A stretch of DNA of 64,000 nucleotides. Origin: an uncultured Verrucomicrobiae bacterium. GTDB taxonomy: Bacteria > Verrucomicrobiota > Verrucomicrobiia > Chthoniobacterales > JAFAMB01. Below are positions 21,296 through 62,929 of this stretch, one piece after another. Numbering within the stretch: position 1 is the stretch's first letter; every line of letters starts with the position of its first letter. The stretch covers positions 32,001 to 96,000 of the forward strand of contig CAVXLD010000014.1 of assembly GCA_963762565.1 (NCBI GenBank). The letters are read 5' to 3'. The translations under genes and the position numbers were made by a program. The notes under the pieces are model-generated. The model made no database searches. It had not been told where the DNA came from and saw nothing but the letters and a program-made list of their open reading frames with translations.

Positions 21296-21462
21296 AAAAT
21301 CTCACGCAAAGACGCCAAGACGCAAAGAAGGAAGATCAAGGGCTGAAAGTAGCTTTAGGCCTAAGATGCTCTTACCCAGGTTTAACCAAACTTTATTTCT
21401 GACCTGGACTCGGGCTTCTTGCGTTCTTTCCTTTGCGTCTTTGCGTCTTTGCGTGAGATTTT
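21296..21462. repeat. Inverted octamer-arm element (cgcaaaga)n...(tctttgcg)n
   Basis: aaaatctcacgcaaagacgccaagacgcaaag ... ctttgcgtctttgcgtctttgcgtgagatttt; lone arm also at 6441-6474. Confidence 0.85.
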
Positions 21463-21469
21463 CTGTCCT

Positions 21470-21985
21470 ATGGCCGGGCTTGATTTTGTCAGTTCACACG
21501 GGTTCGTTCTGCGACTCCCCAGAGTCTCGGTGACGGACCCGGCACCGGATCCGGAGCTGATAGCGTTCCTTCGAGACGCTGATCTCGAGCGCCTCGGCGG
21601 ATATGAACCAGGGGTTGTGCCGTTCGTGCGCAGTCTATTGCTCTTGGCTGCCGGTGACCTAGAACGAGCGCATCGATTGGTTCAGGAGGCCTCCAATGCT
21701 GACGGAACCTATATTCATGGGATCGTCCATCGAACCGAGGACGATTTCGACAACGCTCGTTATTGGTTTGGAAGAACAGCAGTTCATCCGGCAGCTGCCG
21801 AGATTTATCGAAAGGCAGCCGCCAACAGCCCGAAAGTGGCGAACTGTGCGACATGGGACCCAATCTGGGTGACGGACTGGGTCGAGGCTTCGAGGAAGGC
21901 CGGCGCCGACGAGGAGTTACGGGCGGTGCTGGCGATAGAATCTGAGGTACTGCTAGAGCACTTCGCGTCAGCGACGCCGGAGTGA
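21470..21985 (+). CDS. Conserved hypothetical protein
   Basis: Motif-like AHRLVQ..YIHGIVHRTEDDFDNARYWF; start moved past the repeat-derived N-terminus. Confidence 0.7.
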   Translation: MAGLDFVSSHGFVLRLPRVSVTDPAPDPELIAFLRDADLERLGGYEPGVVPFVRSLLLLAAGDLERAHRLVQEASNADGTYIHGIVHRTEDDFDNARYWFGRTAVHPAAAEIYRKAAANSPKVANCATWDPIWVTDWVEASRKAGADEELRAVLAIESEVLLEHFASATPE

Positions 21986-21998
21986 GTGGGAGAGAAGA

Positions 21999-22211
21999 GG
22001 CGTGGGCGTATGGGCGTGTCGGCGTGATGTGAACCTTGGGCTCTGCGATCGAATAGGACTTATACGACCTATGGGACTTATATGTTTGGTCCTATAAGTC
22101 CCATTGGTCCTATAGAGCCTGTCGCGCCGAAGGCTTGGCGAAGGCGGATCCTATCGGTGCGCAGCGCGCAGCGCACGCCCATACGCCCACACGCCGATAC
22201 GCCCACACGCC
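21999..22211. repeat. Nested inverted-repeat element (family E): octamer arms, inner 9-mer arms, family-C insert
   Basis: (gggcgtat)-type arms / (acgcccat); inner ataggactt / gtcctat; second copy at 41564-41800. Confidence 0.85.
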
Positions 22212-23704
22212 TACTTCCAGCCGAGGACGTTGAAGACCACGAATAGCCCAGCGGAAAAGGTGGTAGCTCCTAGCAGTACGCAGACCGGTAGGGTCAAGAG
22301 CCAGGCAAGAGCGATATTACGCAGGGTAGCCAATTGCAGACCAGATCGGTTAGCTGCCATCGTACCTGCAATACCGGATGACAAAACGTGGGTTGTGCTG
22401 ACAGGTAACCCGTAGTTATCAGCGGCGAAAATCGTTCCCATGGCAACTAACTCCGCACAAGCGCCTTGTGCATAGCTCAAATGCGATTTCCCGATCTTTT
22501 CACCGACTGTCACCACGATTCGTTTCCAGCCGATCATGGTGCCGCAACCCAGTGCAAACGCGACGGCAACCTTCACCCAGGCAGGAATAAAGTTCGTGGC
22601 CGCATTCAGCCCGCCAGCGAATTGCTTGAGCGCGGCGGCATCCGCCGGGTCGGTTATCGCATGGGTTTTCAGCAATTTCCCAATGGTGTTCTGCGTAAGA
22701 TAGATGTCAGTCCTAACCCCAGCCCTGACCGCTTTGCCCAACTCTTGGAATGTCTTCTTGCCTTCAAGGTTGGCCTCAAATGCTTCAAGGGTGACGACAA
22801 GCGCGCCAAAGGTTTTGTCCGTTAGCTTACCAGAGGTTTTCAGGAAGGCGGAGAGTTCGGTCTCTGCTTCTTTCTGATCAGCCGGACGATCCTTAACATA
22901 CTTCGCAACAATGGCGGCCACCTGACCTTCTCCCTGTTCAATTCCGGCTATCTCTTTCGGGTCCAGACTAAGGTTCAGGGCGAAGACAGCGGGCACAATC
23001 CCAACCAAAATCAGCATGATCAGACCCATCCCTTTTTGACCGTCGTTCGATCCGTGTGCGTAGCTGACGCCGGTGCAAGTGAGAACCAAAATTCCGCGAA
23101 TCCACCAAGGAGGCGCTTTCTTAGCATCAGCCGGCTGGAATAGCTCTGGCTTACGAATTAATAGCTTAACCAGTAATAGAAGAATTGCCGAACAAACGAA
23201 GCCGACAATGGGGGAAATCAATAGAGTCGTGAATACTTCATTCGCTTTTGCCCAGTTCACGCCTTCCCCAAAGTTATGGCCCGGCGAATTTATCCAAGCG
23301 TTTGCTAGCCCGACGCCCATAATCGACCCGATGAGCGTGTGCGAGCTGGAAGCGGGCAACCCGAGGTACCAGGTGCCGACGTTCCAGATGATCGCGGAAA
23401 TCAGCAGGGCAAACACCATGGCGAATCCGGCGCCAGAGCCCACATTTAGCACCAGCTCCACTGGTAACAGCGCGAGTATCGAGAAAGCGACTGCTCCGCT
23501 GGAAACAAGAACTCCGATCAAATTCCAAATACCGGACCAGATGACAGCTACAACGGGCGGCAAAGAGTGAGTATAGATAACGGTCGCGACCGCATTAGCG
23601 GTATCGTGGAAGCCGTTAACAAACTCGAAGGCCAGGGCCATTAACAGGGCCAGGATCAGGAAGATCGCCGTGGCCATGGGTAAGGTTTCACCAAATAGAT
23701 TCAT
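22211..23704 (-). CDS. pitA: Inorganic phosphate transporter (PiT family)
   Basis: FEFVNGFHDTANAVAT, SSSHTLIG, HGSNDGQK, PVSTTH; start taken at MNLFG. Confidence 0.92.
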   Translation of the reverse strand: MNLFGETLPMATAIFLILALLMALAFEFVNGFHDTANAVATVIYTHSLPPVVAVIWSGIWNLIGVLVSSGAVAFSILALLPVELVLNVGSGAGFAMVFALLISAIIWNVGTWYLGLPASSSHTLIGSIMGVGLANAWINSPGHNFGEGVNWAKANEVFTTLLISPIVGFVCSAILLLLVKLLIRKPELFQPADAKKAPPWWIRGILVLTCTGVSYAHGSNDGQKGMGLIMLILVGIVPAVFALNLSLDPKEIAGIEQGEGQVAAIVAKYVKDRPADQKEAETELSAFLKTSGKLTDKTFGALVVTLEAFEANLEGKKTFQELGKAVRAGVRTDIYLTQNTIGKLLKTHAITDPADAAALKQFAGGLNAATNFIPAWVKVAVAFALGCGTMIGWKRIVVTVGEKIGKSHLSYAQGACAELVAMGTIFAADNYGLPVSTTHVLSSGIAGTMAANRSGLQLATLRNIALAWLLTLPVCVLLGATTFSAGLFVVFNVLGWK

Positions 23705-23768
23705 GGGAGCAGAGGTGTGACGGTGGCGATGAGACTCGACCGAGAGCAAGATGGACAACGCTGATCAG

Positions 23769-23786
23769 GTTACAATTTTGTAACAA
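23769..23786 (-). promoter_or_regulatory. Pho-box-like site upstream of the PiT gene
   Basis: Minus strand TTGTTACAAAATTGTAAC: TGTTAC/TGTAAC half-sites 11 nt apart. Confidence 0.45.
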
Positions 23787-23860
23787 AGAGCTCAATGTGA
23801 GCGGGTAACGACGGAGGGCTCAGCGGCTCATGGAGCGCCGCGTGTTTGGTCCCAGTCGTC

Positions 23861-24082
23861 TGGAGGGGAGCCGCTTTATCGCGTTGCAGGTCTATCAGTC
23901 TCTAGCAGGCGGCTCCCGGGAATGACCCAGCGTGACCTTTCGCCCGGCGGTTCCGTCTGACCGGTTTCCCGATTCCGAGGCCGCTGACAGACCCGCGTCG
24001 TGCTGGATCATTCCCGGGAGCCGCCTGCAGCCATCCGACAGAACTGCGAACCTATGCGAACCTATAAAGCGGCTCCCCTCCA
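23861..24082. mobile_element. Family A element
   Basis: tggaggggagccgctttat ... ataaagcggctcccctcca; inner gcaggcggctcccgggaatga / tcattcccgggagccgcctgc. Confidence 0.82.
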
Positions 24083-24157
24083 CGCGCGCTCTCACCTTAA
24101 AAAAATCTCGCGGATTGCCCCACGCTCAGGAGATAAGGGAAGGTCTGTTCGACCAAA

Positions 24158-24820: not shown

Positions 24821-24882
24821 GCGGCAGCCGAACAAGTACCGCAAGGCAGCTAAGAGGTACCGCCGCGGCCAAATCCAAAAGC

Positions 24883-25197
24883 AACCGCGAATGCACACGA
24901 ATGGACGCGAAGACAAGATAAATCCAACCGCAGATGGACGTGGATTTACGCAGATAAAATCGGCGGAGAAATTTGGCTCATTTTGGCCGTTGCACACCGA
25001 GATCGCTAGTGGACCTCGCGCGAAGAACAAATGAGCATGATCCAGAAACCTACAACCGGCACTTTTGAGTGAGCGTAATCGAAGGCGATATTATCTGCGT
25101 CAATCTGCGTTCATCTGCGGTTCGTTTGGTTCTCTTTTTGAGCCGCATTCATCTGCGGTTTGCCTTGTTTCGTGTGCTTTCGTGTCCATTCGCGGTT
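24883..25197. repeat. Doubly nested 9-mer inverted-arm element
   Basis: Outer aaccgcgaatgcacacgaatggacgcgaa / ttcgtgtgctttcgtgtccattcgcggtt; inner aaccgcagat.. / ..atctgcggtt (24926-25122). Confidence 0.85.
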
Positions 25198-25272
25198 TCC
25201 ATTGAGGTACTCTTGGGGCGACGATTCCGAAAATCGCCTTGACCGAGTGCCGAAGTCTGATTAGGCGGCACT

Positions 25273-26657: not shown

Positions 26658-26883
26658 CCTCTATGGGCCGGCTGCTGAGGTCATTCTGTACGGGCATGAC
26701 ATCGTTTTGGTCGTCAGCAGCCGACTGAGGCGTTTGGCCGGTGTTTCCGGTTTCGGTATCGCTACAGCTCAGTTGCACCAGGGCTGCCAGTCCAATTAGT
26801 AACAGTTTCAACTTCATAGGCTTCCAGCTTCTCCGGCGGAGTGAGTCTCGCTTTCTAGGCTCAACCTAAGCGACAAAACAGAA

Positions 26884-27041
26884 AATAATATCCGCAGATT
26901 ACACAGATTACGCAGATTTCGGTTCAAAGACGGAGACTGCCGGCAAGATGAGTGCCTTATTGCGCCTAGTCTCGCGGTTTTCCTTAACCGAACGTATATC
27001 GCATCCCCAAAACGAAATCTGCGAAATCTGCGGATATTATT
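26884..27041. repeat. Inverted 9-mer-arm element (cgcagatta)n
   Basis: aataatatccgcagattacacagattacgcagattt ... aaatctgcgaaatctgcggatattatt. Confidence 0.85.
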
Positions 27042-27706: not shown

Positions 27707-27779
27707 AAATGGGTAATGCTTTTGCTTCTAACCATGCGTAAGGACCGTTCTGTTTACAAGCGGTTTACGGGTTTAATTG

Positions 27780-29234: not shown

Positions 29235-29279
29235 TAGAAAGAGCCTTTCTCTTAGTTTTAAGAGTAGAAGCAAGGGAAA

Positions 29280-29615
29280 AAGGAGCTAGGAGCTAGAATC
29301 TAGGAGCTAGGAGTTAAGAGATTGGTCGCAGTTTTGGTGGGGCGAGGCTCCCGAATAGCCCGGCGAATGAACCGAAGGCGCACCGCAAGAACGCTGAGAG
29401 ATGACTTAGTAGGCCGATAGACGCGCCGAGCCGTTGCCCACGATAGACCACGGCTCGGCGCGATTTAAGGCCCAACAAATGGTGCGGGCTAGCCTTACCT
29501 ACCGCTTTGCTCTAACCTTTGGATTGTTCGGGAGCCTCGCCCCACCAAGGACGAGGACGATTACGCCCCCCTGGCACGCGCCTCCTAGCTCCTAGATTCT
29601 AGCTTCCAGCTCCTT
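29280..29615. mobile_element. (ggagcta) heptamer inverted arms enclosing a family-F REP/MITE element (29334-29548)
   Basis: aggagctaggagctagaatctaggagctaggag / ctcctagctcctagattctagcttccagctcct; F ends ttggtggggcgaggctcccgaa / ttcgggagcctcgccccaccaa. Confidence 0.85.
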
Positions 29616-29669: not shown

Positions 29670-31175
29670 ATGCCCTCCATCCTAAAGATCCAAGGCATTT
29701 CTAAGCACTTTCCCGGTGTCCGGGCGTTACAGGAGGTTTCTTTCGAGGTCGAGGAGGGCGCTATCCACGCCGTCATGGGCGAAAATGGCGCCGGCAAGAG
29801 TACCTTGATGCAGGTGATTGCAGGGGTTCACCAGCCGGACGCCGGCGAACTCGAGCTCTTCGGCGAAAAAGTCCGATTTACTAACCCGGCAGAGGCGCAG
29901 GCCAAAGGGATCGCCATCGTTTACCAGGAACTCAACCTCGCCCAGAACCTGTCAATCGCGGAAAATATCTTTCTGGGTTCCGAACCTCGCACGGCCGGGG
30001 TGTTCCTGGATCGAGCTAAGCTGCGGGACGGGACGTTCAAAGTCTTCCAACGTCTCGGTATTCACTTTGACCCGGACACGATTGTTCAGAATTTGACCGT
30101 CGCCCAGCAGCAACTGATAGAAATCTGCAAAAGTTTGATCCGAAATCCGCGCTTGCTGATTCTGGATGAACCCACGTCGAGCCTTTCTGAGGTCGAATCG
30201 GCCATTCTCTTTCGGGTGATTGCTGACCTTCAGGCGCATGGGGTTACGATTGTTTATATTTCTCACCGGCTGCCGGAAGTGTTTTCGCTTTGCCAAGTCT
30301 TGACCGTCTTACGCGACGGGAAACATGTCCGGACGGTTAAGACCAGTGAGACCACCGAGGCCGAGGCAGTCCGAATGATGGTTGGGCGCGAGCTACTGGC
30401 TTTTCATCGAACTCCGGTCGAGTCGAAGGGCGAGGTGGTGCTGCGCGTCGAAGATCTGACCCGGAAGGGTCAATATGAAGGAATTACGTTCGAGGTTCGG
30501 CGAGGGGAGATCGTCGCACTGGCTGGGCTGATCGGCGCCGGCCGAACCGAGATGGCGCTAGGTATCTTTGGATCGCCTCCACCGGACCGAGGTCAAGTCT
30601 GGTTGAAAGGCAAGAAGGCGGTCTTCCGCCAACCAAAGTCTGCGGTGAATGCCGGGGTCGCTTATGTTCCTGAGGACCGAAAAACCATGGGCCTCATTCT
30701 TGGAGCTGGGGTAGGGACTAACATTTCTAGTGCGGCGCTGCGACGGTTGGCCCGTGGTCCGTTCGTAGATCGAGGCGCCGAGGATCGCTTGATTGGGAAA
30801 TATGTGGATCGACTGCGAGTACGGACCCCGAGCTTTGATCAAAGGACCGGGCTGCTGAGCGGAGGAAACCAACAGAAAGTTTTGCTGGCAAAGTGGTTGG
30901 CGGTTCAGCCCGCTATACTCATCGTGGACGAGCCAACCCGCGGAGTCGATATCGGCACCAAGGCGGAGATCTACGCGTTGTTCGAAGAACTTGTTCACGA
31001 CGGTATGGGGATTTTGGTGATTTCCAGCGACCTACCGGAAGTTCTCGCGTTGGCCGATCGTATTTTGATCATGCGTCACGGTCGCCTGACTGGCCAAGTC
31101 GATCGAGCCGAAGCCACGGAAGAGAAGGTGATGCATCTGGCGGCGCTGGGGGTGGCGGAAGCGAACGGTGATTAG
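29670..31175 (+). CDS. Sugar ABC transporter ATP-binding protein (RbsA/MglA type)
   Basis: GENGAGKST, LDEPTSSL, YVPEDRK, LSGGNQQKV, DEPTRGVDIG. Confidence 0.93.
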   Translation: MPSILKIQGISKHFPGVRALQEVSFEVEEGAIHAVMGENGAGKSTLMQVIAGVHQPDAGELELFGEKVRFTNPAEAQAKGIAIVYQELNLAQNLSIAENIFLGSEPRTAGVFLDRAKLRDGTFKVFQRLGIHFDPDTIVQNLTVAQQQLIEICKSLIRNPRLLILDEPTSSLSEVESAILFRVIADLQAHGVTIVYISHRLPEVFSLCQVLTVLRDGKHVRTVKTSETTEAEAVRMMVGRELLAFHRTPVESKGEVVLRVEDLTRKGQYEGITFEVRRGEIVALAGLIGAGRTEMALGIFGSPPPDRGQVWLKGKKAVFRQPKSAVNAGVAYVPEDRKTMGLILGAGVGTNISSAALRRLARGPFVDRGAEDRLIGKYVDRLRVRTPSFDQRTGLLSGGNQQKVLLAKWLAVQPAILIVDEPTRGVDIGTKAEIYALFEELVHDGMGILVISSDLPEVLALADRILIMRHGRLTGQVDRAEATEEKVMHLAALGVAEANGD

Positions 31176-31353
31176 TGATTGGTGATTAGTGATTGGTGGC
31201 GATCCAAATCGCCTGGAAATCCTCGTGGGTTAGCTCCAGGTTCCCGCATCGCGCAGAAAGACCCGAATTGTTCGACAACCAACGTGGGTTATTCGGGGAG
31301 CCGGTCCCGACCAATCACTAATCACTAATCACCATCACTAATCACTAATCACC
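31167..31353. repeat. (gtgattr) inverted-arm element with unique core, copy 1
   Basis: ggtgattagtgattgg.. / ..ccaatcactaatcac; core is similar to the reverse complement of 31843-31955. Confidence 0.85.
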
Positions 31354-31780: not shown

Positions 31781-31787
31781 GGGCGGA

Positions 31788-32016
31788 TTGGTAGGGCGAG
31801 GCTCCCGCAAGAAAGTGATTGGTGATTGGTGACTGGTGATTCGTTGGGGACAACGCCCGAGATTCACGATGTTTTCCCGAACGACTTTGGGGTCTCCTGG
31901 CGCGGTGCAAGAACCTGAGACTAACGCACAAGGATTTCCAGGCGATCCAGTCGCCACCAATCACCAATCACTAATCACTAATCACCATTTCTTCTCTGGG
32001 AGCCTTGCCCTACCAA
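31788..32016. mobile_element. Family-F ends enclosing copy 2 (inverted) of the gtgattg-arm element (31815-31986)
   Basis: ttggtagggcgaggctccc ... gggagccttgccctaccaa around heptamer arms. Confidence 0.82.
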
Positions 32017-36572: not shown

Positions 36573-36594
36573 GGGAGGCCGCGGCACGATTGCG

Positions 36595-40713: not shown

Positions 40714-40727
40714 CGGCAGCCGACCCA

Positions 40728-40857
40728 GAGGCGTGGCAAAAAAGTAATCGTAATAAGTACGTCAGTAATCAGTCCTGATACCCCGGGCTGGTTCAACCGG
40801 CTTCCGAAACTGATTACTGTTACACTGATTACTGATTACTTTTTGTGCCACGCCCTC
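40728..40857. repeat. (agtaatc) inverted-arm element
   Basis: ggcgtggcaaaaaagtaatc..cagtaatcagt / actgattact..gattactttttgtgccacgcc. Confidence 0.8.
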
Positions 40858-41545: not shown

Positions 41546-41563
41546 GCGAGGGGTGGGCGCGAA

Positions 41564-41800
41564 ATGGCGAGTGGGCGTGGTGGAGTGCGCTGGGCGCCGC
41601 GAACGGATAGGACCTATAGGACCAATAGGACTTATGGGACCAATGGGACGTGACGCATAGGTCTCATAAGTCGCACAAAGCCTGTCGCGCCGTAGGCTTG
41701 GCGAAGGCGGATCCATTCGTTCGCAGCGCCGAGCGCTTACACACACAGCCCATAGGCCCATAGGCCCATACGCCCATACGCCGACGCGCCCACACGCCAT
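41564..41800. repeat. Family-E nested element with family-C insert (41680-41713)
   Basis: Same layer order as 21999-22211; ends at the recO stop. Confidence 0.82.
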
Positions 41801-42343: not shown

Positions 42344-42361
42344 GGCTGACGGGGGAGGGAA

Positions 42362-42550
42362 GGTGAAAGGTGAAAGGTGATTGGTGATTGGTGATTGGTG
42401 ATTGGTGATTGGTGATTGGTGATTGGTGATTGACGGACAGTCGAAGGCCCCCAGGTAAGCAAGTCAAAATCGAAGCGCGTTTTTGCCACGCCCGTCGCGA
42501 CCAATCACCAATCACCAATCACTTCTCACTTCTCACTTCTCACTTCTCAC
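42362..42550. repeat. (ggtgaww)x10 / (caatcac)(ttctcac) inverted-arm element
   Basis: Ten heptamers at 42362-42431; right arm encodes the last codons and stop of lpdA. Confidence 0.9.
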
Positions 42551-43957: not shown

Positions 43958-44003
43958 AAACATCTTTAGCTGAAACCTGCCGATGAGCAAGGCGGTGGGG
44001 AGA

Positions 44004-44182
44004 GAGAGGTGATTGGTGATTAGTGATTGGTGATTGGTGGAGCACGGCTCCTACATAATGAAGCACTCGGAAGGTCCATGCCCTCTTAGGTCCGTTTTTG
44101 GCATTATTATTGTGTTGGTGGTAGCTGGTTGGAATGCAACATCCGGTCTGGGCTACCAATCACCAATCACCAATCACCTCTC
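44004..44182. repeat. (gtgattg) inverted-arm element
   Basis: gagaggtgattggtgattagtgattggtgattggt ... accaatcaccaatcaccaatcacctctc. Confidence 0.88.
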
Positions 44183-44183
44183 A

Positions 44184-45989
44184 CTAATTCGCTGCTGCCG
44201 GCGTTGTCGTTTTGTTGAGCGCGCGCAGGTCATACACCTTGCCCCACTGACCTTCCGCAGCGACTGGATAACTGTCCCACGAATGAGCCGTGGCCGGATA
44301 ATGTTCCTGTTCGAATTGGCCCCAGAACAAGTAATCGATCTTTAGTTGGGTGCAGAGTGGTTCCCAGCCCGGCTGTGCTAGCATCACTTTGTTCAGGAGT
44401 CCTTCCTCTGACCGATATTCAAGACCATGACTCCAAAGGTGACCTGGGAACCCTAAAACAACTCGATGACCCGCGACCAGCGCCGGGTGATTGTAGGTGG
44501 GGTAAATGGCGAATACGGCTTCGGGAGGAAAGCCCTTGAGGGCGTCGTCGACCTGCGTCCATTCGACCTGGTTACCGATCGCGTATCCATGTTCGTCATC
44601 CGGCGCCAACCCGCCTACTAAGCTGATGAAGCCGGAAAAGAAAAGCAGGAAGAAGAATGGCAAACGGATCAGCGGATGCCATCGACTGAGGAACATTTCC
44701 CAGATGGCCGCCATCATCAGCATATAAGCCCAGAAAAAGAGCTTGGTATTATCCCAGTCCCAAGGAGCAAAGCGGACGAATGCGCACAGAATAAACATTG
44801 CCAGTGCCGGAAGCAGAATCTGCCGCATTCTGAACCGAGTCCGCCACACGTCGATGCCTCTGGGAAAACACAGGTAAACGAGCAGAACGATTGCTAGCGG
44901 GAGTACAAACCCAAAATTCAGTAGCCAGACCATTGGTGCTTGAGCTCCGTGCGGCAATTGACGAAACCACCAAAGTTTGTGCCAGTATTCATGCGCCTCG
45001 GCCACTGAAGTCCAACCAGGTTCCCAAGCCAAGGCATTGGTTTTGCCGAACCCGGTAACACCATAAACAAAAAATGTTGCCGGGATAAACGAAAACGTCA
45101 CTAACCGGATCAGATGGCCGCGCCAGTTTGGATTCCCAAACAGGAACCACCAGAGCAATAGGAACGACAGAAAGATAAATGTATGCAGATGAAAAAGCGG
45201 CATCGTGCAATACAGCAGCCATTCCCCCCAAAAAGAGAGATGCGGTCGATCGGTCTGCGAATCTAGCGTCCGTCGCCAGTGGGTGATCAAGATTAATCCC
45301 GCCGGGATCGCATATAGCAATCCGCGCTGAGTAACGAAAAGAGCCAGGGGGATCGATTTCCAAGCGATATCAGCCTGATAGTCCTCGAGATGCCACGGCC
45401 ATGACTGGAAAAACATGAAACCAACCAGCCCGCCATTGAATAGAAAAGCGGCAACTGCAAACGGGCCGCCGAAAAGAAAAAGAGCTCGCACTGTCAGCAG
45501 CGAGCCGAGAAACGCCACCAGAATAATTCCCAAGTTCGGTGAAATGCCGATTAACTTCAGCTCCGCGTTGAATATGTCGATACCGATCGGGTAGCGGAGC
45601 TTATCAAACGCGTAGATTGGATTTTCCGGCCAATAGTGTGGATTCGATGCCAGAAAATTGATTTGGGTGAGGTGCAGACAGATGTCGCCCAGATTGTTGG
45701 GCGAAAGGACTTTGACGTTTCCGTCCTCGATAAAGATCACCTGACTAAAGGCTCGGACGGCGAAGACCAAAAACAGGATGGCGAGGAGAACGCCGCTTGC
45801 TTGGATCTTCTCCAGACGGGTCAGCATTTGTCCGGGACTCACCAAAACCGCGATTAAGACTACGACCAAGCTGAGACCTAATGACAGGGCTGCGGTCCAT
45901 GGCACCAGTCCATAAGGTGAATATCCGAAACCGACGCCGAGCGAAGTCGATAGGGCTATCCAGGTGAGGAAAAGCAGCGAGATCTTCAT
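44184..45989 (-). CDS. Polytopic membrane protein, probable GT-C-type glycosyltransferase
   Basis: Many TM segments, loop NNLGDICLHL..FWP-like ENP, WDWDNTK; adjacent to GT genes. Confidence 0.55.
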   Translation of the reverse strand: MKISLLFLTWIALSTSLGVGFGYSPYGLVPWTAALSLGLSLVVVLIAVLVSPGQMLTRLEKIQASGVLLAILFLVFAVRAFSQVIFIEDGNVKVLSPNNLGDICLHLTQINFLASNPHYWPENPIYAFDKLRYPIGIDIFNAELKLIGISPNLGIILVAFLGSLLTVRALFLFGGPFAVAAFLFNGGLVGFMFFQSWPWHLEDYQADIAWKSIPLALFVTQRGLLYAIPAGLILITHWRRTLDSQTDRPHLSFWGEWLLYCTMPLFHLHTFIFLSFLLLWWFLFGNPNWRGHLIRLVTFSFIPATFFVYGVTGFGKTNALAWEPGWTSVAEAHEYWHKLWWFRQLPHGAQAPMVWLLNFGFVLPLAIVLLVYLCFPRGIDVWRTRFRMRQILLPALAMFILCAFVRFAPWDWDNTKLFFWAYMLMMAAIWEMFLSRWHPLIRLPFFFLLFFSGFISLVGGLAPDDEHGYAIGNQVEWTQVDDALKGFPPEAVFAIYPTYNHPALVAGHRVVLGFPGHLWSHGLEYRSEEGLLNKVMLAQPGWEPLCTQLKIDYLFWGQFEQEHYPATAHSWDSYPVAAEGQWGKVYDLRALNKTTTPAAAN

Positions 45990-48720: not shown

Positions 48721-49093
48721 GGGGGGCGAAACGGCGAGTGGGCGAAACGGCGAATGGGCGAATGGGCGAAACGGCGACGCTACCCTTGATCGGTAGGGCG
48801 AAAATCTCGGCGCGAATTCCGGTTGCTACGTGGCCGGCTCAACCGCGCCGGATTTGAGCCATGCGTGCGGATGACCTCGCCCAAGACGTTGTTGATTTAA
48901 GGCAATTCCGAATCAAGGCCATTTGTCCGCCCAGGGTGCGGCTCAAATCCGGCGCGGGAAATCGGCAGACGAAAAGACGTCCGCGGCGCGCCGAGATTTT
49001 CGCCCTACCGAACGGGGGACAATGTCGCCGCTTCGCCCTTTCGCCCCATCGCCCCGTCGCCCCATCGCCCTTTCGCCCCCTTCGCCCTTTCGC
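48721..49093. mobile_element. Octamer (ggcgaatg/ggcgaaac) inverted arms around a GTAG-type REPIN-like element (48790-49011)
   Basis: tcggtagggcgaaaatctcggcgcg / cgcgccgagattttcgccctaccga; inner cgcgccggatttgagcc / ggctcaaatccggcgcg. Confidence 0.87.
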
Positions 49094-51042: not shown

Positions 51043-51144
51043 GAATGACAGATGACAGATGACAAATCACAAATGACAAATATGATCCTTACGGGAAACC
51101 TGGGCGGCGAATATTTGTCATCTGTCATTTGTCATTTGTCATTC
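51043..51144. repeat. (atgacar) inverted-arm element
   Basis: gaatgacagatgacagatgacaaat.. / ..atttgtcatctgtcatttgtcatttgtcattc. Confidence 0.88.
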
Positions 51145-51182: not shown

Positions 51183-51338
51183 ATGTCACAGCATCGTAGT
51201 TTAAAAGGAGCCAGCACCATCCAGACTAAGAGAAACGTGCTGAAAAGGTTTGAGCGAGTCGAGCTCCTGAAGAAACGTGGGGTTTTTAAGCCCGGTGATC
51301 GCGTGATTGGTTTACCCAAGACTAAGCCAGACGCGTAA
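51183..51338 (+). CDS. PVC-superphylum small basic protein
   Basis: MSQHRSLK..KRNVLKRFER...GLPK, 51 aa, very basic; recalled as the PVC signature family. Confidence 0.82.
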   Translation: MSQHRSLKGASTIQTKRNVLKRFERVELLKKRGVFKPGDRVIGLPKTKPDA

Positions 51339-51391: not shown

Positions 51392-51666
51392 AGTAATCAG
51401 TAATCAGTAATCACTAATCAGTAACCAGTTTAGGAGCTGGGAGCTAGAATCTAGGAGCCAGGAGGGCGGCGCATGCGGACTTGGCGAATTGTCCGCTGGT
51501 CTCGATTGCTAGGCGTAGCGAACACCCACTGCTTCGACTCCTCGCTTCCGTTACAATTGTGCGCCCCTGATGCTGGAGACATACGTGCCTTGCGCGCATC
51601 CTCCTAGCTCCTAGATTCTAGCTCCCAGCTCCTACACTGATTACTGACCCACTGATTACTGATTAC
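51392..51666. repeat. Nested (agtaatc) outer and (ggagcta) inner inverted-arm element
   Basis: Inner arms 51431-51634 share ggagctagaatctaggagc with the 29280 element; outer motif shared with 40728. Confidence 0.88.
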
Positions 51667-54461: not shown

Positions 54462-54740
54462 GCATTACGCACACTGAGAAAGAACAGTTTGGGCCGAAAT
54501 AACCCTCTAACCCAAGGCCTTCACCCTGACTGACGAGATTTGCCGTCGTAATTACTGTGTGAGCGTCCAGCCGAGCTATCCCGATTAAGGGGATCGCCAT
54601 GCTAAGGAGAGAATTCCACAAACAAAGCGACCTTGCCCACTAGATTCCGGGCTCACAAGCCATCACCCCGGATCTCCCGTCGTTACGATAGATCTATAGT
54701 TGAATCTGCGAGCTAGGGCAAACGCTTTATCGGATCTGTC

Positions 54741-55071
54741 AATCGTAATCGTCCTCGTCGTTGAATGAAGGGCCCAGTGGCCCCCCTTGCCCAGCGCTCG
54801 GAGGGGAGCCGCTTTGTAGGTCAGCAGATCTGTAATATTGCAGCAGGCGGCTCCCGGGAAGGGCAGAGGGTTTAGCACGCTACCTGATGAGGTGTAATCT
54901 AATCCACCGGCGAAAACCCCTCGGTAAGAGCTTGGCGCTGGGTAATTCCCGGGAGCCGCCTGTCAGCAACAGATAGAACTACCACGCGATAAAGCGGCTC
55001 CCCTCCGCACGCTGGGTGGGCGATACCGTTGCGGCCTTCTTTTCGAGGACGAGGACAACGACGAGAACGAT
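54741..55071. mobile_element. Family-A element (54799-55007) inside inverted (gtcctc/gaggac) arms
   Basis: cggaggggagccgcttt / aaagcggctcccctccg; outer aatcgtaatcgtcctcgtcg / cgaggacgaggacaacgacgagaacgatt. Confidence 0.8.
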
Positions 55072-55086
55072 TACCAGTAGTCGCCC

Positions 55087-58098: not shown

Positions 58099-58110
58099 AA
58101 CCGCATTATA

Positions 58111-58677: not shown

Positions 58678-58681
58678 AGTC

Positions 58682-59150: not shown

Positions 59151-59262
59151 AAGTAAGCAGTAAGAAGTGTTTGGTGTCTTCCGAGAGAGACCGTAGCATT
59201 TTGCCGGCCAGTCACTGCTTACTGCTTACTTCTTACTGCTTACTTGCTTACTGCTTACTGCT
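59151..59262. repeat. (agtaagc) inverted-arm element
   Basis: aagtaagcagtaagaagtg ... cactgcttactgcttacttcttactgcttact.. Confidence 0.82.
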
Positions 59263-59290
59263 GAGCGATCTTTCTTCCCAGCGAGTGGCC

Positions 59291-60385
59291 CTAACCCTTT
59301 AACCTTTTCTCAAGCTCTCCGATCTTCTTCTCGAGCTCCTTCACTCTCTGATTAAGTCGGGACAGCCGCCTGAAGTTCATTAGCTGTTGCAGATGTTCGC
59401 GTAGCGGTAATGCCGGGGAACCCATAACGGTCTGCCGAGGCGGCACGTCGCCAGAGACACCCGATTGAGCTACCACTACGGCATCATCGCCGATGGTAAA
59501 ATGATCTGGTATTCCGGCTTGGCCACCTAGCACAACCCGTTCGCCAAGTTTAGCACTGCCGCCCATGCCGACTTGGGCCACGATCAGGCAATTCTGACCG
59601 ACGGTTACGTTGTGGCCGATCTGGACCAGATTGTCGATTTTGGTACCTCGGCCGATCTTGGTTTCGCCCAGGGTTCCTCGATCGATGCAGGTTCCGGCCC
59701 CAATCTCGACATCGTCATCAATCACGACATTGCCAATCGAGTTGATGCGAAGGGTTTCGCTGTTCGAGTTGGTGATCTCGGTGAGTTCCTTCTTTTGTCT
59801 TGCTGCTTCGATATTACTCGACTGGGCGGCTACGAACGAGAATCCGTCTCCCCCGATGCTGACGTTCGGTTGGATGATCACCCGGTTCCCAATTTTACAA
59901 CGATCGCCGACGCTTACTCCCGGATGCAGCAGAGCTTTCAGCCCGATTTCTACTTCCGCACCGACATTAACGTTGCTAATCAAGCGGGTTCCGGCGCCAA
60001 TCACCGAATTGGGGCCAACCCAGCAATGCGGGCCGATGCTAACCTTTTCGCCGATCTTGGCGGTCGGATCGATCACCGCGGTTGCATGAATCCCTTCCTC
60101 TGAGTAGACCGGACGCTCGAACAGCTCTAGGAGCCGGGCCAGAGCCACTTGTGGGCGAGACACCAAAATGTAGTTCGGAACGTCGATCGATTTCAGATCC
60201 GCCGGGGCGATCGCATTGGTTGCCTGGTTCTGCTTAAGGTAATCCAATACATTGGCGGAAAGGACCAAAGCTAAATCATTGGGTTCGCGAACGAGAGCCG
60301 GGTGAAGAATTCTGGTGATGATGACTCCAGGATCACCCTGCAGCTCCCCATCCACGTATTTGGCGATTTCGCCTAGGGTTTTCAT
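59291..60385 (-). CDS. lpxD: UDP-3-O-acylglucosamine N-acyltransferase, paralog 2
   Basis: Hexapeptide repeats, [33 protein letters not shown]. Confidence 0.9.
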
Positions 60386-60407
60386 GAATAGCGAGCAGAC
60401 CACCGAC

Positions 60408-60469
60408 AACTTAAAACTTATAACCTATAACCTAAAACTTATAAACTTATAACTTATAACTTATAACTT
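60408..60469. repeat. AT-rich (aacttat) heptamer tract between the lpxD paralogs
   Basis: aacttaaaacttataacctataacctaaaacttataaacttataacttataacttataactt. Confidence 0.88.
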
Positions 60470-61570
60470 CTAACCTTTGAGCTGTTGCAGCTCTTTCTGC
60501 AAATCTTCAACGGCCTTCTGCAGCTCCTTCAATTGGCGTTGCATTGTTGGGAGGCGTTTCAGCTGTACCTGGCGTTCCAGGAACTCTCGCAGAGGCACTG
60601 CCGGGGTTGAACCGACTGCTTGTTTGGCCGGCACATTCCCGGCCACACCGGCTTGGGCCCAAATCACTGCGTCATCGCCGACCGCCATGTGGTCCGGCAG
60701 ACCGGATTGTCCGCCCATCACCACGCGGTCACCAACCTTTGAGCTGCCTGCGAGGCCAGCCAACCCTGCGATCAAGCAGTTTCGTCCGATCGTCACATTG
60801 TGACCGACCTGAACCAGGTTATCGAGCTTGCTTCCGCTGCCGATGCGGGTCTCGCCCAAGGTACCTCGATCGATGCAAGCGCCTGCACCGATCTCGACGT
60901 GATCTTCGATGACCACGTTCCCGATCGAATTGACCCGGACGATCTCGTAATTAAAACTGGTAACCTCGGTTTTCTTATTTGGCCTGACCGACTCGACGCT
61001 CCCGGGTTCCGGCGTCACAAAGGAAAAACCGTCACCGCCGACCGTCGCGTTCGGTTGGATTATGACGTGGTTGCCAATCTCACAACGATCACCGACGAAG
61101 ACGCCAGCATGGAGGAGAGTCTGGTTTCCGATGCTGACCTCAGCGCCGATGCTCACGTTGCTGATCAGGCGGCATCCGGTTCCAATCACGGTATTTGGCC
61201 CGATCCAGCAATGTGGACCGATACTGGTGTTGGCGCCGATCTTTGCGGTCGGATCGATCACCGCGCTGGGATGGATACCCTCGGTCGAATAAGCGGGGCG
61301 TTCGAACAATTCGAGAAGGCGAGCCAGTGCCAGGCGCGGTCTTGGCACCAGAACAAAGTTCGGGACATCGACCGGCCCAAGCTCTGCCGGGACCACCGCA
61401 TTCATTACCTGATTCTGTTTGAGGAGCTCGATAACGCTCCCGGAAAGGACGAGAGCTAAATCTTGCGGGCCACGAACCAGAGCCGGGTGGACCACCCTGG
61501 TAATCGCAACATCGGTATCTCCGCGGAGCTCACCATCTAAGTACTTCGCGATTTGGCCCAAGGTTTTCAT
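60470..61570 (-). CDS. lpxD: UDP-3-O-acylglucosamine N-acyltransferase, paralog 1
   Basis: [31 protein letters not shown]. Confidence 0.9.
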   Translation of the reverse strand: MKTLGQIAKYLDGELRGDTDVAITRVVHPALVRGPQDLALVLSGSVIELLKQNQVMNAVVPAELGPVDVPNFVLVPRPRLALARLLELFERPAYSTEGIHPSAVIDPTAKIGANTSIGPHCWIGPNTVIGTGCRLISNVSIGAEVSIGNQTLLHAGVFVGDRCEIGNHVIIQPNATVGGDGFSFVTPEPGSVESVRPNKKTEVTSFNYEIVRVNSIGNVVIEDHVEIGAGACIDRGTLGETRIGSGSKLDNLVQVGHNVTIGRNCLIAGLAGLAGSSKVGDRVVMGGQSGLPDHMAVGDDAVIWAQAGVAGNVPAKQAVGSTPAVPLREFLERQVQLKRLPTMQRQLKELQKAVEDLQKELQQLKG

Positions 61571-61637
61571 AGGGCCCTAAATAATTCGCTGACCCGCACC
61601 ATCGTCAAGCAAAGGAATCGACAGGGGGGCGTCGCCA

Positions 61638-61704
61638 TTACTCCAATACTCCCGCCCGCAACGCTTCGCGTAGCGATGCGGGCGGGCCGACGCTCCATCA
61701 CTCC
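61638..61704. repeat. (actcca) tract interrupted by a 36-bp hairpin
   Basis: tactccaatact[cccgcccgcaacgcttcgcgtagcgatgcgggcggg]ccgacgctccatcactcc. Confidence 0.65.
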
Positions 61705-61730
61705 GGGACAACGAAGCCCTTGGTGAGTGA

Positions 61731-62489
61731 TTAAGGATTGTGAACTTCATACGTCTGCTGCACTAGCATGTCCCAGGAATCGGTTTTCCCAGCACTTAGT
61801 TTGCGGGTGACGGCTTCGCTGGTGGCCGTGGCTGCTCGGAAAACGACTGGCGACTTCGAATCAGGTGCGGCAGCGATTTGCAGGTGCAATATGGAGCCGG
61901 TCCTGGCGTAGAACGTGATCGCGTAACGGTCAGGTCCGACCGGGTACTCACCAAGCTCGGTCCCATTCAACAGCAAATTGACGGCGCCCGTTTCATGTTG
62001 GTCGCCGGGTTCAAACCACATTGTGTAAGCTGCCACCCGCCCTTGATCCAGATCGTCGCTCATCTGTTTCACTAAAGGCCCAATTGCCAGCGTCACCGCT
62101 CCGTGCGTAAGAGAATTGCGCACTTCAGTGAGAGTATCGGCTGGCAGTCGTCGCTGGGCTTCGGCCCACAAATAAAAAGCCAAGCGTTGGTCAACCTGAT
62201 TTTGGTGCAAATAGGTCTTCCCGAGATTGGTCGTTTCCGGATCGATATCCTGATCGGTTAATTGGAGGGTCTTGCTTTGCGGGTTGGGATCATCGAATCC
62301 GCCGTTCATCAGAAGGGTTACCACTATCGCGGCTAACGCAAGAACCCCGAGCCAAAGGCTCACTCGGATGGCGAGCGGCACCCACCAGATTCCGGATCGG
62401 TGGGAATGATGGCGACGTCTTCGTCTCGAAACAGCCGTGCTCGAGTTTCGGGAAGATGCCGATGAACGACGAGACGGAACAGCAGACAT
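61731..62489 (-). CDS. Membrane-anchored hypothetical protein
   Basis: Arg/Ser/His-rich N-terminus, one TM helix, soluble domain. Confidence 0.65.
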   Translation of the reverse strand: MSAVPSRRSSASSRNSSTAVSRRRRRHHSHRSGIWWVPLAIRVSLWLGVLALAAIVVTLLMNGGFDDPNPQSKTLQLTDQDIDPETTNLGKTYLHQNQVDQRLAFYLWAEAQRRLPADTLTEVRNSLTHGAVTLAIGPLVKQMSDDLDQGRVAAYTMWFEPGDQHETGAVNLLLNGTELGEYPVGPDRYAITFYARTGSILHLQIAAAPDSKSPVVFRAATATSEAVTRKLSAGKTDSWDMLVQQTYEVHNP

Positions 62490-62620
62490 AAGACGGCCTA
62501 ATTCTGCCTTAACTTGTCATCGAAGCCAAGCAGTTAGCCCGATTTTTGCATCGATGATGGTGAATGACCGGGTGAGGCGATCACTGGGCGGTGGAAGACG
62601 GAGGAGGCAAAAATCGGGCT

Positions 62621-62929
62621 GTGAGAAGTGAGATGTGAGAGGTGATTGGTTTGGTGGGGCGAGGCTCCCGAAAGAGCTAACAATCGGTCCGAAGTGCTCT
62701 GCGTTCCGACGCTCTATTGTTTGTGGGGCTCATTCGCGCGCCGAGCCGGTCCCTCGACGTGGCAACTCCAGGGCCCGGCTCCCCACGCGTTTCGGTGTCG
62801 TGGACGAAAGAGCAACGGTAGGTCGAATCTTTTTGGGCAGCATTTCTGCACTTTCGGGAGCCTCGCCCCACCAAATTAGGCCCCCTCGCCCCACCTCTCA
62901 CTTCTCACTTCTCACCAATCACTTCTCAC
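62621..62929. mobile_element. (gtgagaa/gtgattg) inverted arms enclosing a family-F element (62650-62875)
   Basis: gtgagaagtgagatgtgagaggtgattgg..[F]..cacctctcacttctcacttctcaccaatcacttctcac. Confidence 0.87.

Follow-up and report, generated by a model that had tools for sequence, protein, structure and literature searches.

The 16 palindromic elements described here are probably gene-less members and relics of genome-wide cassette families that resemble intervening sequences (IVS) of rRNA and renew themselves from the centre of the hairpin. They lie in a window of 64 kb (64,000 nucleotides of contig C14) from a soil bacterium, a Chthoniobacterales-like Verrucomicrobiota. Their arms appear to be the same inverted arrays of short period as are found on either side of the genes of two small-protein families. 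The first encodes four-helix-bundle, '23S-IVS-type' proteins and has arms of period 6-8; the second encodes GxxExxY Cas4-like nucleases and has arms of period 8-10 with a CRCRRAG-like unit. In both, gene and arms would be inherited as a single cassette.

Hairpin elements of the window and their orthologous spacers

The original prediction named at least 16 intergenic elements of the layout (motif)n-core-(reverse complement)n. By Tandem Repeats Finder (84 rows for the window) and reading, all 16 were located, and each named motif has a reverse-complement partner array 30-300 nt downstream (array starts are given below as left/right). Since the arrays at 51392 and 51431 are layers of one element, the 17 starts listed correspond to 16 elements, which total 3,517 bp and carry no strand assignment. 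All of them fold as long hairpins far exceeding mononucleotide shuffles (z -3.8 to -13.1); two solo arrays, analysed as controls, did not (z -1.1 and +1.3). The predicted combination of a shared architecture with a changing motif holds across the whole set.

The orthologous spacers of four congeners are nearly always occupied (35/45 by a strict criterion of arms of at least 16 nt, the remainder weaker by eye), and none of those compared is a clean empty site. In spacers 21136, 29274 and 51338 the outer arms are orthologous and the interiors different. The hairpin at 21296..21462 (z -11.2; 21304/21431) has a 103-nt core between 32-nt arms of 97% complementarity (21296-21327 and 21431-21462), built from CGCAAAGA-type 8-mers with GxxExxY-type grammar; G002, G004 and G005 have orthologous outer arms around different interiors. 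The element 29280..29615 (z -11.9; 29281/29582) is layered. Its outer arms (29280-29313 and 29582-29615) are 33-34 nt of AGGAGCT units with one variant, AGAATCT, and between them the dispersed module TTGGTGGGGCGAGGCTCCCGAA occurs twice in inverted orientation, along with a remnant of CGAGGA; the left junction is kept in all four congeners, again with different interiors. The element 51392..51666 (z -12.6; left arrays at 51392 and 51431, right arrays at 51601 and 51636) folds as one continuous stem, with outer AGTAATC arms and inner AGGAGCT(+AGAATCT) arms around a 134-nt core. Both layers occur in G004, the outer layer and a remnant of the inner one in G002, and AGGTTTT-type arms in G003 and G005.

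Other sites carry different arms in different congeners. GGGCGTRT 8-mers form the outer arms (21993-22025 and 22183-22215) of the two-layer element 21993..22215 (z -8.5; 22003/22174), the inner part being a palindrome made from TATGGGAC-type 9-mers; in orthologous spacers the arms consist of GGCGAATG (G003) or AGGAGCT (G002). A further two-layer element, 24876..25204 (z -8.1; 24888/25169), combines outer arms of CGCGAATGNA 10-mers (24876-24911 and 25169-25204) with inner CGCAGATNNA arms (24921-24962 and 25086-25127), and a CGAGGA-armed composite is found at this site in G003 and G004. The CGCAGATTA 9-mer arms (26884-26912 and 27013-27041) of 26884..27041 (z -6.3; 26895/27013) recur on two GxxExxY cassettes of the same genome, and AGTAATC-type arms occupy the site in G002, G003 and G004. 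The layered element 31786..32010 (z -8.5; 31815/31955), in which an outer GGTAGGGCGAGGCTCCCG-type module pair surrounds GTGATTG arms (31815-31841 and 31955-31987), differs in content across all five congeneric spacers. At 42363..42550 (z -9.0; 42376/42500) the arms consist of two motifs in the order (GTGAAAG)2(GTGATTG)8 ... (CAATCAC)3(TTCTCAC)4, and G002, G003 and G005 have CGCAAAGA-armed composites there. The site of the GTGATTG-armed element 44001..44185 (z -6.6; 44008/44155) bears other arm families in G002, G003 and G004 and, by the strict criterion, no arms in G005, and that of the AGTAAGC-armed element 59151..59262 (z -4.7; 59152/59214), whose right arm has grown to about 7 units, bears GGCGAAWG-armed composites in congeners.

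The GTGATTR heptamer-armed element 31167..31353 (z -7.7; 31168/31313) fills its spacer, with the stop codon of the upstream ABC-ATPase gene inside the left arm and an EamA-like gene beginning immediately past the right arm; it is shared with G002 and G005, while GTGAGAA arms are present in G003 and AGTAATC arms in G004. The AGTAATC arms of 40730..40854 (z -3.8 for 40728-40840; 40743/40810) are enclosed by a short outer stem with A and T tracts and recur in G002; in G003 and G005 the site is taken by a hairpin of CACAGAGRA 9-mers. GGGCGTRT/GCCCATAC 8-mer arms surround a palindrome of TATGGGAC-type 9-mers at 41553..41800 (z -6.7 for 41564-41800; 41553/41748), a site with an additional gene of roughly 1.4 kb in congeners. 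The ATGACAR heptamer hairpin 51044..51143 (z -8.3; 51044/51113; 27-nt core) is present in 4/4 congeners by eye and in 2/4 by the strict criterion. In the element 48722..49093 (z -13.1; 48724/49025), GGCGAAWG 8-mer arms (48722-48778 and 49024-49093) enclose a second inverted pair, whose halves lie at 48783-48814 and 48987-49018. Finally, the arms of 62621..62930 (z -12.0; 62621/62892) enclose a TTGGTGGGGCGAGGCTCCCGAA module pair (62650-62677 and 62848-62875); they had been ascribed to gtgattg, of which one unit is indeed present, but consist mainly of GTGAGAA units.

Pairing, polarity and placement across the genome

The 6.1-Mb genome contains 4,479 merged tandem arrays, 1,542 of them with period 7. 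Neighbouring arrays of the same unit within 800 nt are inverted in 566 cases and direct in 58, and 1,091 of the 3,852 arrays of period 6-11 belong to inverted pairs. When ten arm families were counted with motif patterns, neighbours within 350 nt stood in the order motif...reverse complement in 403 cases, in the converse order in 2 and on the same strand in 80, so that the inverted pairing proposed from the window extends to the genome. The left arm is purine-rich in 435/479 pairs of period 7-10, as it is at 17/20 and 23/25 loci in other genomes of the phylum; in the hexamer family the polarity is reversed in 30/30 pairs. Altogether, the population comprises about 500 hairpin elements with about 100 unit types.

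These pairing statistics argue strongly against arrays that act one by one, as G-quadruplex formers or phase-variable simple-sequence repeats, with pairing as a secondary matter. In the available part of their paper, Rehm et al. (2015, PMC4692102) read inverted GGGAATC pairs of Xanthomonas in terms of G-quadruplexes, and arm unit numbers differ among congeners, as phase variation would have it. However, G-tracts are missing from most units (GTGATTG, AGTAATC, ATGACAR and AGGAGCT among them), and the arrays lie between genes at stop codons, not in promoters or reading frames. This reading is already disfavoured and we give it hardly any credence.

The elements sit in spacers of protein genes, mostly beginning a few bases from a stop codon (median distance of the arm edge 12 nt; 116/511 overlap the stop codon). 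They are found in 129/849 convergent, 253/2,592 co-directional and 92/899 divergent spacers, which is a mild enrichment in the first and no depletion in the last. This proximity to stop codons and the near-universal occupancy of orthologous spacers would also be expected if the host required a hairpin there, be it for operon punctuation, RNase III processing, mRNA 3' stabilisation or transcription insulation. Any long stem would then suffice, slippage would create the tandem arms, and small genes would settle in stems merely because insertions are tolerated there. The retention of some hairpin in the orthologous spacers, of the ATGACAR hairpin in all four congeners by eye, the convergent enrichment and independent arm growth (22 units at C7:440889, 10 units in G004) all agree with such a role. 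On the other hand, the AGGAGCT-type arm of 33 nt recurs with the same internal variant unit and sharp outer edges at about 50 loci, which indicates copying and not local slippage. Nor would a host hairpin account for the fixed polarity (403 to 2), for an arm grammar that follows the enclosed gene family, for terminator-like A or T tracts on only 38-43 of 496 elements (4% background) or for the undepleted divergent spacers. We therefore consider host-serving hairpins an unlikely explanation, albeit the most serious competitor of the cassette families.

Gene-bearing cassettes and turnover of interiors

All seven four-helix-bundle genes of this genome (PF05635/TIGR02436) have arms of period 6-8, and 10 of the 11 GxxExxY genes (PF13366/TIGR04256) have arms of period 9-10, the proteins being assigned to TIGR02436 and TIGR04256, respectively. 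This link, which the original prediction had put forward, recurs at no fewer than 22 (at least 22/26) four-helix-bundle loci of five congeners and in a phylum sample, where four-helix-bundle loci have period 7 at 17/27 and period 6-8 at about 22, and GxxExxY loci have period 9 at about 14/28 and period 8-10 at about 22. The congeneric four-helix-bundle arms include AGGAGCT(+AGAATCT), AGTAATC, GGCGAAWG, GTGATTR and GTAAGCA; most of the arm families seen without a gene in the window thus bracket such genes in congeners. Examples are the AGGAGCT(+AGAATCT) outer arm of 29280..29615 (in G004 and G005) and the GGCGAAWG arms (in G003, L176; G004, L179; G005, L174); for ATGACAR arms, the six genomes read contain no gene-bearing partner. 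The window stretch itself yielded zero matches to PF05635, PF13366 and PF01797, and the statement that it holds no mobilising gene therefore stands. In the GxxExxY protein, whose nearest folds are Cas4 and lambda exonuclease, D-E-K, E29 and Y32 are invariant in 31/31 sequences. The four-helix-bundle protein is related to the DGR accessory protein Avd, though it falls under the cut-off of the Avd model, and to our knowledge no catalytic activity has been assigned to it.

The arm unit is identical in 3/4 protein pairs with at least 66% identity and in none below 55%. Within this genome, most pairs of paralogues share 20-50% identity; they are thus old, and gene-bearing cassettes seldom jump. One site harbours a GTGATTG cassette in three genomes and an AGTAATC cassette in two, with 46% identity between the proteins and 78-83% between the flanks. 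Nesting has a consistent order: AGGAGCT lies outside CGAGGA and outside the GGGCGAGGCTCC module (5 to 0 each), and GTGA-type arms lie outside the GGGCGAGGCTCC module (4 to 0). Same-arm copies have mostly unrelated interiors, and these consist mostly of other dispersed modules. Accordingly, the proposal that the elements are non-autonomous derivatives holds as far as arm families are common to them and to gene-bearing cassettes, but the unrelated interiors are unlike simple deletion derivatives: gene remnants were found in three short elements of about 500, and a single internal deletion in the element of G002 at spacer 51338.

Unrelated interiors are also what one would expect of filler DNA, if, at a double-strand break, a templated polymerase or reverse transcriptase extended each 3' end with short purine-rich repeats, much as in telomere healing, and the ends were then joined across the filler to give motif...filler...reverse complement. 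The purine-rich repeat does run 5' to 3' towards the centre on both strands, and the distant kinship with Avd is in keeping with this idea. Yet all pairs of the hexamer family run the other way, the interiors are mainly dispersed modules instead of random filler, and the fixed 33-nt arms and gene-bearing interiors resemble inherited units, which makes break-repair scars a very improbable origin.

REP/REPIN elements moved by RAYT or other Y1 transposases share with the present ones the short, dispersed intergenic repeats, the inverted pairs and the hundreds of copies, and the genome has 10 Y1-domain genes above cut-off. Nevertheless, tandem arms occur within 500 nt of none of the 10, and single arms are not palindromic (compare the solo arrays, z -1.1 and +1.3). 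That niche is taken by a separate REP-like family, the repeat CGGCCTCGCAAGCGAGGC..., whose 431 copies cluster near one Y1 gene, while Acido-Lenti-1 hairpins flank another. As predicted, REP/RAYT systems are inadequate for the arms, and a REPIN-like origin is scarcely plausible.

Known systems and a possible route of renewal

Among the closest counterparts of the cassette families are the 23S rRNA IVS with an S23p/four-helix-bundle ORF, described from Coxiella burnetii (PMC4990558) and, as rRNA insertions, from CPR bacteria (PMC11270868). As far as the available parts of these papers go, IVS and the present elements alike have complementary flanks that pair into a long stem, and the small ORF enclosed belongs to one protein family, PF05635; both also come in versions that lack the ORF and are sporadically distributed. 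IVS are termed selfish there, and removal of the stem by RNase III renders the insertion harmless (PMC4990558, PMC11270868). In contrast to IVS, the elements described here lie between protein genes and not within rRNA (the 23S gene of the genome is uninterrupted, and 0/20 phylum loci contact an rRNA gene), their arms are tandem 6-10-mers of fixed polarity, they are nested and number in the hundreds, and a second gene family, GxxExxY, has its own arm grammar. The Xanthomonas GGGAATC heptamer arrays likewise lie in spacers and form convergent inverted pairs, 70-75 per genome. Transcripts of them exist, and the number of units varies although the type is the same from species to species; the accessible text deals with one motif and does not report enclosed genes, nesting or turnover (PMC4692102). 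Our elements are built from about 100 types of unit, and G-tracts are absent from the majority. The STRR of heterocystous cyanobacteria are tandem heptamers that abound between genes and fall into several sequence types. We know of no description of pairing, gene cassettes or layering for them, and the phylum is a different one. MITEs are likewise small, dispersed and often nested, with terminal inverted repeats, but the full-length partners found here lack a transposase gene and same-arm interiors are unrelated. Furthermore, no insertion event or target-site duplication was seen on reading 51 AGGAGCT-type pairs, including four composed of the right arm of one element and the left arm of the next. 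As the comparison with close relatives also gave no clean empty site and no act of mobility, mobility is deduced from dispersal and turnover only. The attC sites of integrons are recombination sites that are recognised through their hairpin structure, vary freely in sequence and bound small gene cassettes. The likeness is one of mode of working only; attC sites are not tandem repeats, and there are no cassette arrays here.

We infer that renewal would start from the middle: new modules would enter an existing palindrome at its centre or replace that centre, giving onion-like layers and a fast turnover of interiors beneath longer-lived outer arms. Two routes, not exclusive of each other, are conceivable to a similar degree, each short of probable: the centre of the hairpin or cruciform may be broken and repaired from another copy with the same arms, or a structure-targeted insertion step may employ the cassette proteins. 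By analogy with rRNA intervening sequences, host RNase III may excise the elements from host transcripts via the long stem, so that insertions would stay harmless. The elements of the window point to a kind of selfish gene cassette that is widespread but has hardly been described.

Paired and polar arms

Tandem Repeats Finder returned 84 rows for the window, and every motif named in the original prediction recurs as its reverse complement 30-300 nt downstream, across a core. The 16 intergenic elements proposed there were all confirmed, although 17 start points had been given for them, 51392 and 51431 being one element. Their combined span is 3,517 bp. A single long stem is predicted for 16/16 elements (z -3.8 to -13.1 versus mononucleotide shuffles), whereas two solo arrays taken as controls are without a folding signal (z -1.1 and +1.3). 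Several elements are built from two or three concentric layers. At 51392-51666, AGTAATC arms enclose AGGAGCT arms, and at 24876-25204 outer 10-mer arms enclose 9/10-mer arms. Outer heptamer arms surround two inverted copies of a 22-nt dispersed module at 29280-29615 and 62621-62930, and at 31786-32010 the order is reversed, with the 22-nt module outside and the heptamer arms inside.

The elements have protein genes on both sides, and the gene content of the window is of the housekeeping type (cobalamin operon, secDF, secA, miaA, recO). By SecA comparison, the nearest relatives (93-70% identity) are MAGs that carry the labels Verrucomicrobiota, Chthoniobacterales or Udaeobacter, which assigns the host to Verrucomicrobiota/Chthoniobacterales and leaves no place for the cyanobacterial frame of the original prediction. 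The tandem heptamers known as STRR belong to the spacers of heterocystous cyanobacteria; the heptamers described here, in contrast, occupy spacers of a member of the Chthoniobacterales. In one case the stop codon of an ABC-ATPase gene (31173-31175) lies within an arm and the next gene begins directly past the other arm (31361); this stop codon comes from the arm in 4/5 congeners. AGGAG- or GGTGAT-like words occur in some of the arm units, and an effect on translation coupling is conceivable. The cobalamin operon (1773-1848, 10396-10825) holds solo or mismatched arms, namely right-arm-type CACTCCAR and CGAGGA arrays whose left partners are absent and, at 10396-10445, a GTGATTG/GTGAAAG left arm with non-cognate right arms, enclosing another palindrome (10480-10721). 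These arms have retained their polarity despite lost complementarity.

After merging, 4,479 tandem arrays were counted in the whole genome (6.12 Mb, 15 contigs), and period 7 accounts for 1,542. Arrays of period 6-11 number 3,852; where two neighbours with the same unit lie no more than 800 nt apart, they are inverted in 566 cases and direct in 58, and 1,091 of these arrays are members of an inverted pair. When ten arm families were traced by motif patterns, neighbours within 350 nt showed the motif followed by its reverse complement 403 times, the opposite order twice and an arrangement on one strand in 80 cases. Of the two inverted layouts that are possible, a single one exists. The left arm is purine-rich in 435/479 pairs of period 7-10, and so are 83/94 unit types of these periods (evenly balanced types left out) and 23/29 single-linkage families; the hexamer family has the reversed polarity in 30/30 pairs. 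Elsewhere in the phylum the same polarity was found at 17/20 and 23/25 loci. These counts demonstrate that the arms are paired and polar. Nesting is likewise demonstrated, but Tandem Repeats Finder pairs yielded only 10 cases because inner arms miss the score threshold, and motif patterns were used instead. After merging, 496 elements cover 91,416 bp.

Arms lie at a median distance of 12 nt from a stop codon and overlap it in 116/511 cases. An inward-reading stop codon is present in 290/328 heptamer pairs; counted per unit type the signal is modest (27/38, compared with 19.9 +/- 2.7 in shuffles). Intrinsic termination was rejected as a general role, since an A4 tract before the left arm (43/496) and a T4 tract after the right arm (38/496) are too few against a background of 4%. 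In practice, the arms disrupt short-read assemblies. In read-derived contigs from three DNA runs and one RNA run, of twenty runs covering part of the window, contigs stop at arms, depth is 100-1,000x in arms versus 4-10x in flanks, and the contig joints that span cores have short sides. The whole genome also contains poly-A 14-mers (680) and poly-C 14-mers (349), possibly as an assembly or contig-end artefact.

A mobilisation of the tandem arms by a REP/RAYT system is excluded. REP/REPIN sequences flank a Y1 (RAYT) gene, whereas tandem arms occur within 500 nt of 0/10 Y1 genes, and two other repeat families adjoin Y1 genes in this genome. Moreover, REP units are imperfect palindromes singly, unlike the solo arrays, which do not fold. 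CRISPR arrays differ as well, consisting of direct repeats with unique spacers, whereas the units here are contiguous and the two arrays inverted. The idea that the arms form G-quadruplexes, after Rehm et al., does not fit units without G-tracts.

The only Rfam match in the window is the Acido-Lenti-1 sRNA motif (4664-4709, minus strand), and 20 phylum loci gave no Rfam match. The genome has 53 matches to this motif, of which 30 exceed the gathering score; they lie, for example, at C1:118882-119560 and C9:102120-102164 on two other contigs and in about 50 other places. Many of the matches are arranged in inverted pairs separated by 150-220 nt. A short Y1 transposase gene is enclosed by one such pair, and a second Y1 gene has another match at a distance of about 90 nt. 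Here Acido-Lenti-1 behaves as a REP or IS200-end repeat would, not as an sRNA gene. Among the dispersed repeats the commonest is CGGCCTCGCAAGCGAGGC..., whose core 14-mer has 431 copies; about five copies of this repeat are clustered at C1:532729-532927, just downstream of the Y1 gene C1:531701-532027 (352-aa Y1-domain ORF). The two likely constitute a REP-RAYT pair distinct from the tandem arms. Non-tandem nested palindromes at 7306-7534, 23886-24047 and 54764-55042 comprise two dispersed modules, with the GGAGGGGAGCCGCTTT-type (about 370 copies) outside and the CAGGCGGCTCCCGGGAA-type (about 170 copies) inside. At 54740-55075 these palindromes are wrapped in CGAGGA hexamer arms, a composite that the congeneric genomes G003 and G004 carry at another site.

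Arms around two small-gene families

Seven four-helix-bundle (PF05635), 11 GxxExxY (PF13366) and 10 Y1-transposase genes of the genome score above cut-off. By array calls alone, matching inverted arrays bracket 6/7, 5/11 and 0/10 of them, respectively. When the sequences were read, arms were evident at 7/7 four-helix-bundle genes, with period 6-8, and at 10/11 GxxExxY genes, with period 9-10; the eleventh is a frameshifted copy whose arm-type arrays make no clean pair. A link between such arms and both gene families, which the original prediction had offered, is thereby borne out in this genome. The arm units of the GxxExxY genes are interrelated (CGCAGATTA, CGCAAAGGA, CACAAAGAT, CACAGAGGA, CGCGAATGGA). 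The proteins belong to TIGR02436 (80.6 and 100.7 bits, NCBIfam cut-off 24) and TIGR04256 (138.5 and 136.7 bits, cut-off 35), and the four-helix-bundle proteins stay below the cut-off of the DGR Avd equivalog (27.6 and 42.5 against 80).

In five congeners we read 26 four-helix-bundle loci and found arms on both sides in at least 22, the others having a flank cut off by a contig end or by the edge of the sequence read. Their arms include AGGAGCT with the AGAATCT-type variant unit also seen in the window, AGTAATC, GGCGAAWG, GTGATTR, GTGAGAR and GTAAGCA, i.e. most families found gene-less in the window. For ATGACAR arms no gene-bearing partner was found in the genome or the five congeners. Within a phylum sample of 121 genomes, a four-helix-bundle gene is present in 78 and a GxxExxY gene in 58. 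Where the flanks were long enough, the best arm period of four-helix-bundle genes is 7 in 17/27 and 6-8 in about 22/27, and that of GxxExxY genes is 9 in about 14/28, 8-10 in about 22/28 and 7 in at most two weak cases; the sampled genomes are interrelated, and these counts are not independent. In this genome, an identical arm unit is shared by 3/4 protein pairs with at least 66% identity and by no pair below 55%. Since close protein pairs have the arm unit in common and distant ones do not, gene and arms travel together. Both a gene-specific arm grammar and the co-inheritance of arms and gene are thus demonstrated.

According to crude gene calls (longest-ORF approximations), the orientation of cassettes is mixed: four-helix-bundle cassettes have the same orientation as their upstream neighbour in 14 cases and the opposite one in 11; for GxxExxY the ratio is 23/4 in the phylum sample and 7/4 in this genome. 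A third cassette gene family was sought and rejected, as other ORFs between same-motif arms are ordinary genes between two separate elements. A 196-aa ORF with an HNH-like motif between AAATGAC-type arms (C1:982089-983031) may be such a gene. At C3:44185-44911 a four-helix-bundle gene is split by a dispersed repeat of about 290 bp with about 50 genome copies.

The D-E-K site of the GxxExxY protein is intact in 31/31 sequences. Its structure model (pLDDT 88.5) is nearest to Cas4 SSO0001, lambda exonuclease, ACE1 and RecE (E from 2e-4, TM 0.45-0.51), and this assigns it to an end-processing branch, not to the junction resolvases.

Turnover beneath persisting arms

Four congeners with flanks about 80% identical are syntenic across most of the window, and 14 spacers with tandem-arm elements could be compared with 45 congeneric spacers. 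Inverted arms of at least 16 nt are present in 35/45; the rest are weaker by eye. Neither a cleanly empty site (0/45 in the four congeners) nor an insertion event was seen in these comparisons. This constant occupation of orthologous spacers, together with the closeness of stop codons, would be expected if the host needed a hairpin at these positions. Terminator-like tracts are rare, however, which speaks against such a need in termination, and we regard a host requirement, which would be compatible with a selfish origin, as an unlikely explanation.

The content of the spacers frequently differs among species: CGCAGATTA versus AGTAATC at 26658, AGTAATC versus a 9-mer hairpin at 40714, GTGATTG versus a CGCAAAGA composite at 42344, and AGTAAGC versus a GGCGAAWG composite at 59151. 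In three spacers the outer arms and flank junction are orthologous and the inside is different. The spacer at 21136 has one, two or three layers, that at 29274 has one AGGAGCT arm over four different interiors, and that at 51338 likewise combines conserved outer arms with a different interior. On another contig, at C11:15941-16552, the cassette is GTGATTG-armed in three genomes and AGTAATC-armed in two. On the left side the alignment ends exactly where the arm begins, and on the right side 33-42 nt past the arm; the proteins are 46% identical, compared with 78-83% for the flanking DNA. These comparisons demonstrate interior turnover beneath persisting arms and the replacement of a cassette at one site.

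Short spacers were found in two congeners only at 36573 (58 and 63 nt versus 192-323 nt), where the palindromes are non-tandem. At 27707-27779 a gene of about 0.5 kb and a GGCGTTY-armed element are absent here (73 nt versus 835-1,186 nt in four congeners), and at 41546-41800 a membrane-protein gene of about 1.4 kb is absent (255 nt versus 1,620-1,931 nt in three congeners). Both are deletions beside repeat elements.

The original prediction regarded the elements as non-autonomous derivatives, and this is supported in part. Three short elements (C10:371505, C13:1528 and C10:281632) contain a gene remnant between cognate arms, and the orthologue of 51392-51666 in the congener G002 has lost the inner left arm and core. 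On the other hand, interiors within the same arms are mostly unrelated. About 50 loci carry one 33-nt AGGAGCT arm, which has sharp outer edges and is followed directly inside by differing sequence. A grouping of 456 cores by similarity gave 269 components, and the largest (107 cores) is linked by shared inner modules. Most of 69 tblastn remnant loci were rejected as decayed cassettes, their source being the dispersed repeat of about 290 bp that interrupts one query gene. Multi-layer composites recur as units: a three-layer CGCAAAGA composite is present at two different loci, and CGAGGA arms surround two non-tandem palindromic families at 7306-7534 and 54764-55042 as well as in G003 and G004. 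By reading the flanks of 51 AGGAGCT-type pairs, four of which join one element's right arm to the next element's left arm, no target-site duplication was seen; some of these flanks prolong the palindrome.

Possible origin and relation to known systems

The elements may be renewed from their centre. The apex of a hairpin or cruciform could be broken and then repaired from another copy with common arms; alternatively, a structure-directed step could bring about insertion. Tentatively, we propose a class of mobile gene cassettes without transposase or integrase, in which the unit consists of a small protein together with inverted arms of its own that are periodic and polar. Such a unit would enter at the apex of existing DNA hairpins by structure, not sequence, or would convert hairpins with the same arms, and onion-like palindromes would result. 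Under this scheme, which is possible but less likely than not, the small protein would be either a putative nucleic-acid binder of the four-helix-bundle family or a putative Cas4-like nuclease of the GxxExxY family.

Like MITEs, the elements have terminal inverted repeats. MITE copies, however, share the interior of a transposase parent, whereas interiors beside identical arms are unrelated here and the gene-bearing partners encode no transposase. With the intervening sequences (IVS) of rRNA they share complementary flanks that make a long stem, as in 16/16 window elements. IVS may encode a PF05635 (S23p) protein, as do the full-length relatives here (7/7 in the genome, 26 congeneric loci), but the window copies are gene-less. 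Furthermore, 23S rRNA IVS sit in helix 25 or 45, whereas our elements lie between protein genes; the 23S gene of the genome (C12:223485-226335) is unbroken and matches the model from 1 to 2925, and 0/20 phylum four-helix-bundle loci gave an rRNA match. Excision of the IVS stem by RNase III is described in one report (PMC4990558), and by analogy a long stem may let RNase III take an element out of host transcripts.

Further reports describe inverted heptamer pairs in Xanthomonas (PMC4692102) and four-helix-bundle genes wedged between cas genes (PMC3936711) or within rRNA insertions (PMC11270868). A literature search that covered few subscription journals found no link of tandem inverted arms to either gene family. 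This genome contributes four points: a rule of arm polarity, a grammar of periods, turnover directed at the centre of elements in orthologous spacers, and replacement of one cassette by another at a single site.

An excess of tandem repeats of 7-9 bases has long been noted in bacterial genomes without an explanation. The TIGR02436 four-helix-bundle and TIGR04256 GxxExxY families are very large families of tiny genes with, to our knowledge, no known function. The genome ties both families to the repeat excess unusually clearly, through an arm polarity that is fixed, a grammar of periods that is different for each gene family, arm units that travel with the gene, and outer arms that outlast a replaced centre at orthologous spacers. 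A vague repeat class thereby becomes a testable model, a cassette living in hairpins, which opens a way to learn what both protein families do and how rRNA intervening sequences arose. If such cassettes do enter hairpin apices or convert hairpins with the same arms, one process would lie behind the heptamer-repeat excess (STRR, Xanthomonas GGGAATC) and the ORF-bearing rRNA intervening sequences across phyla.
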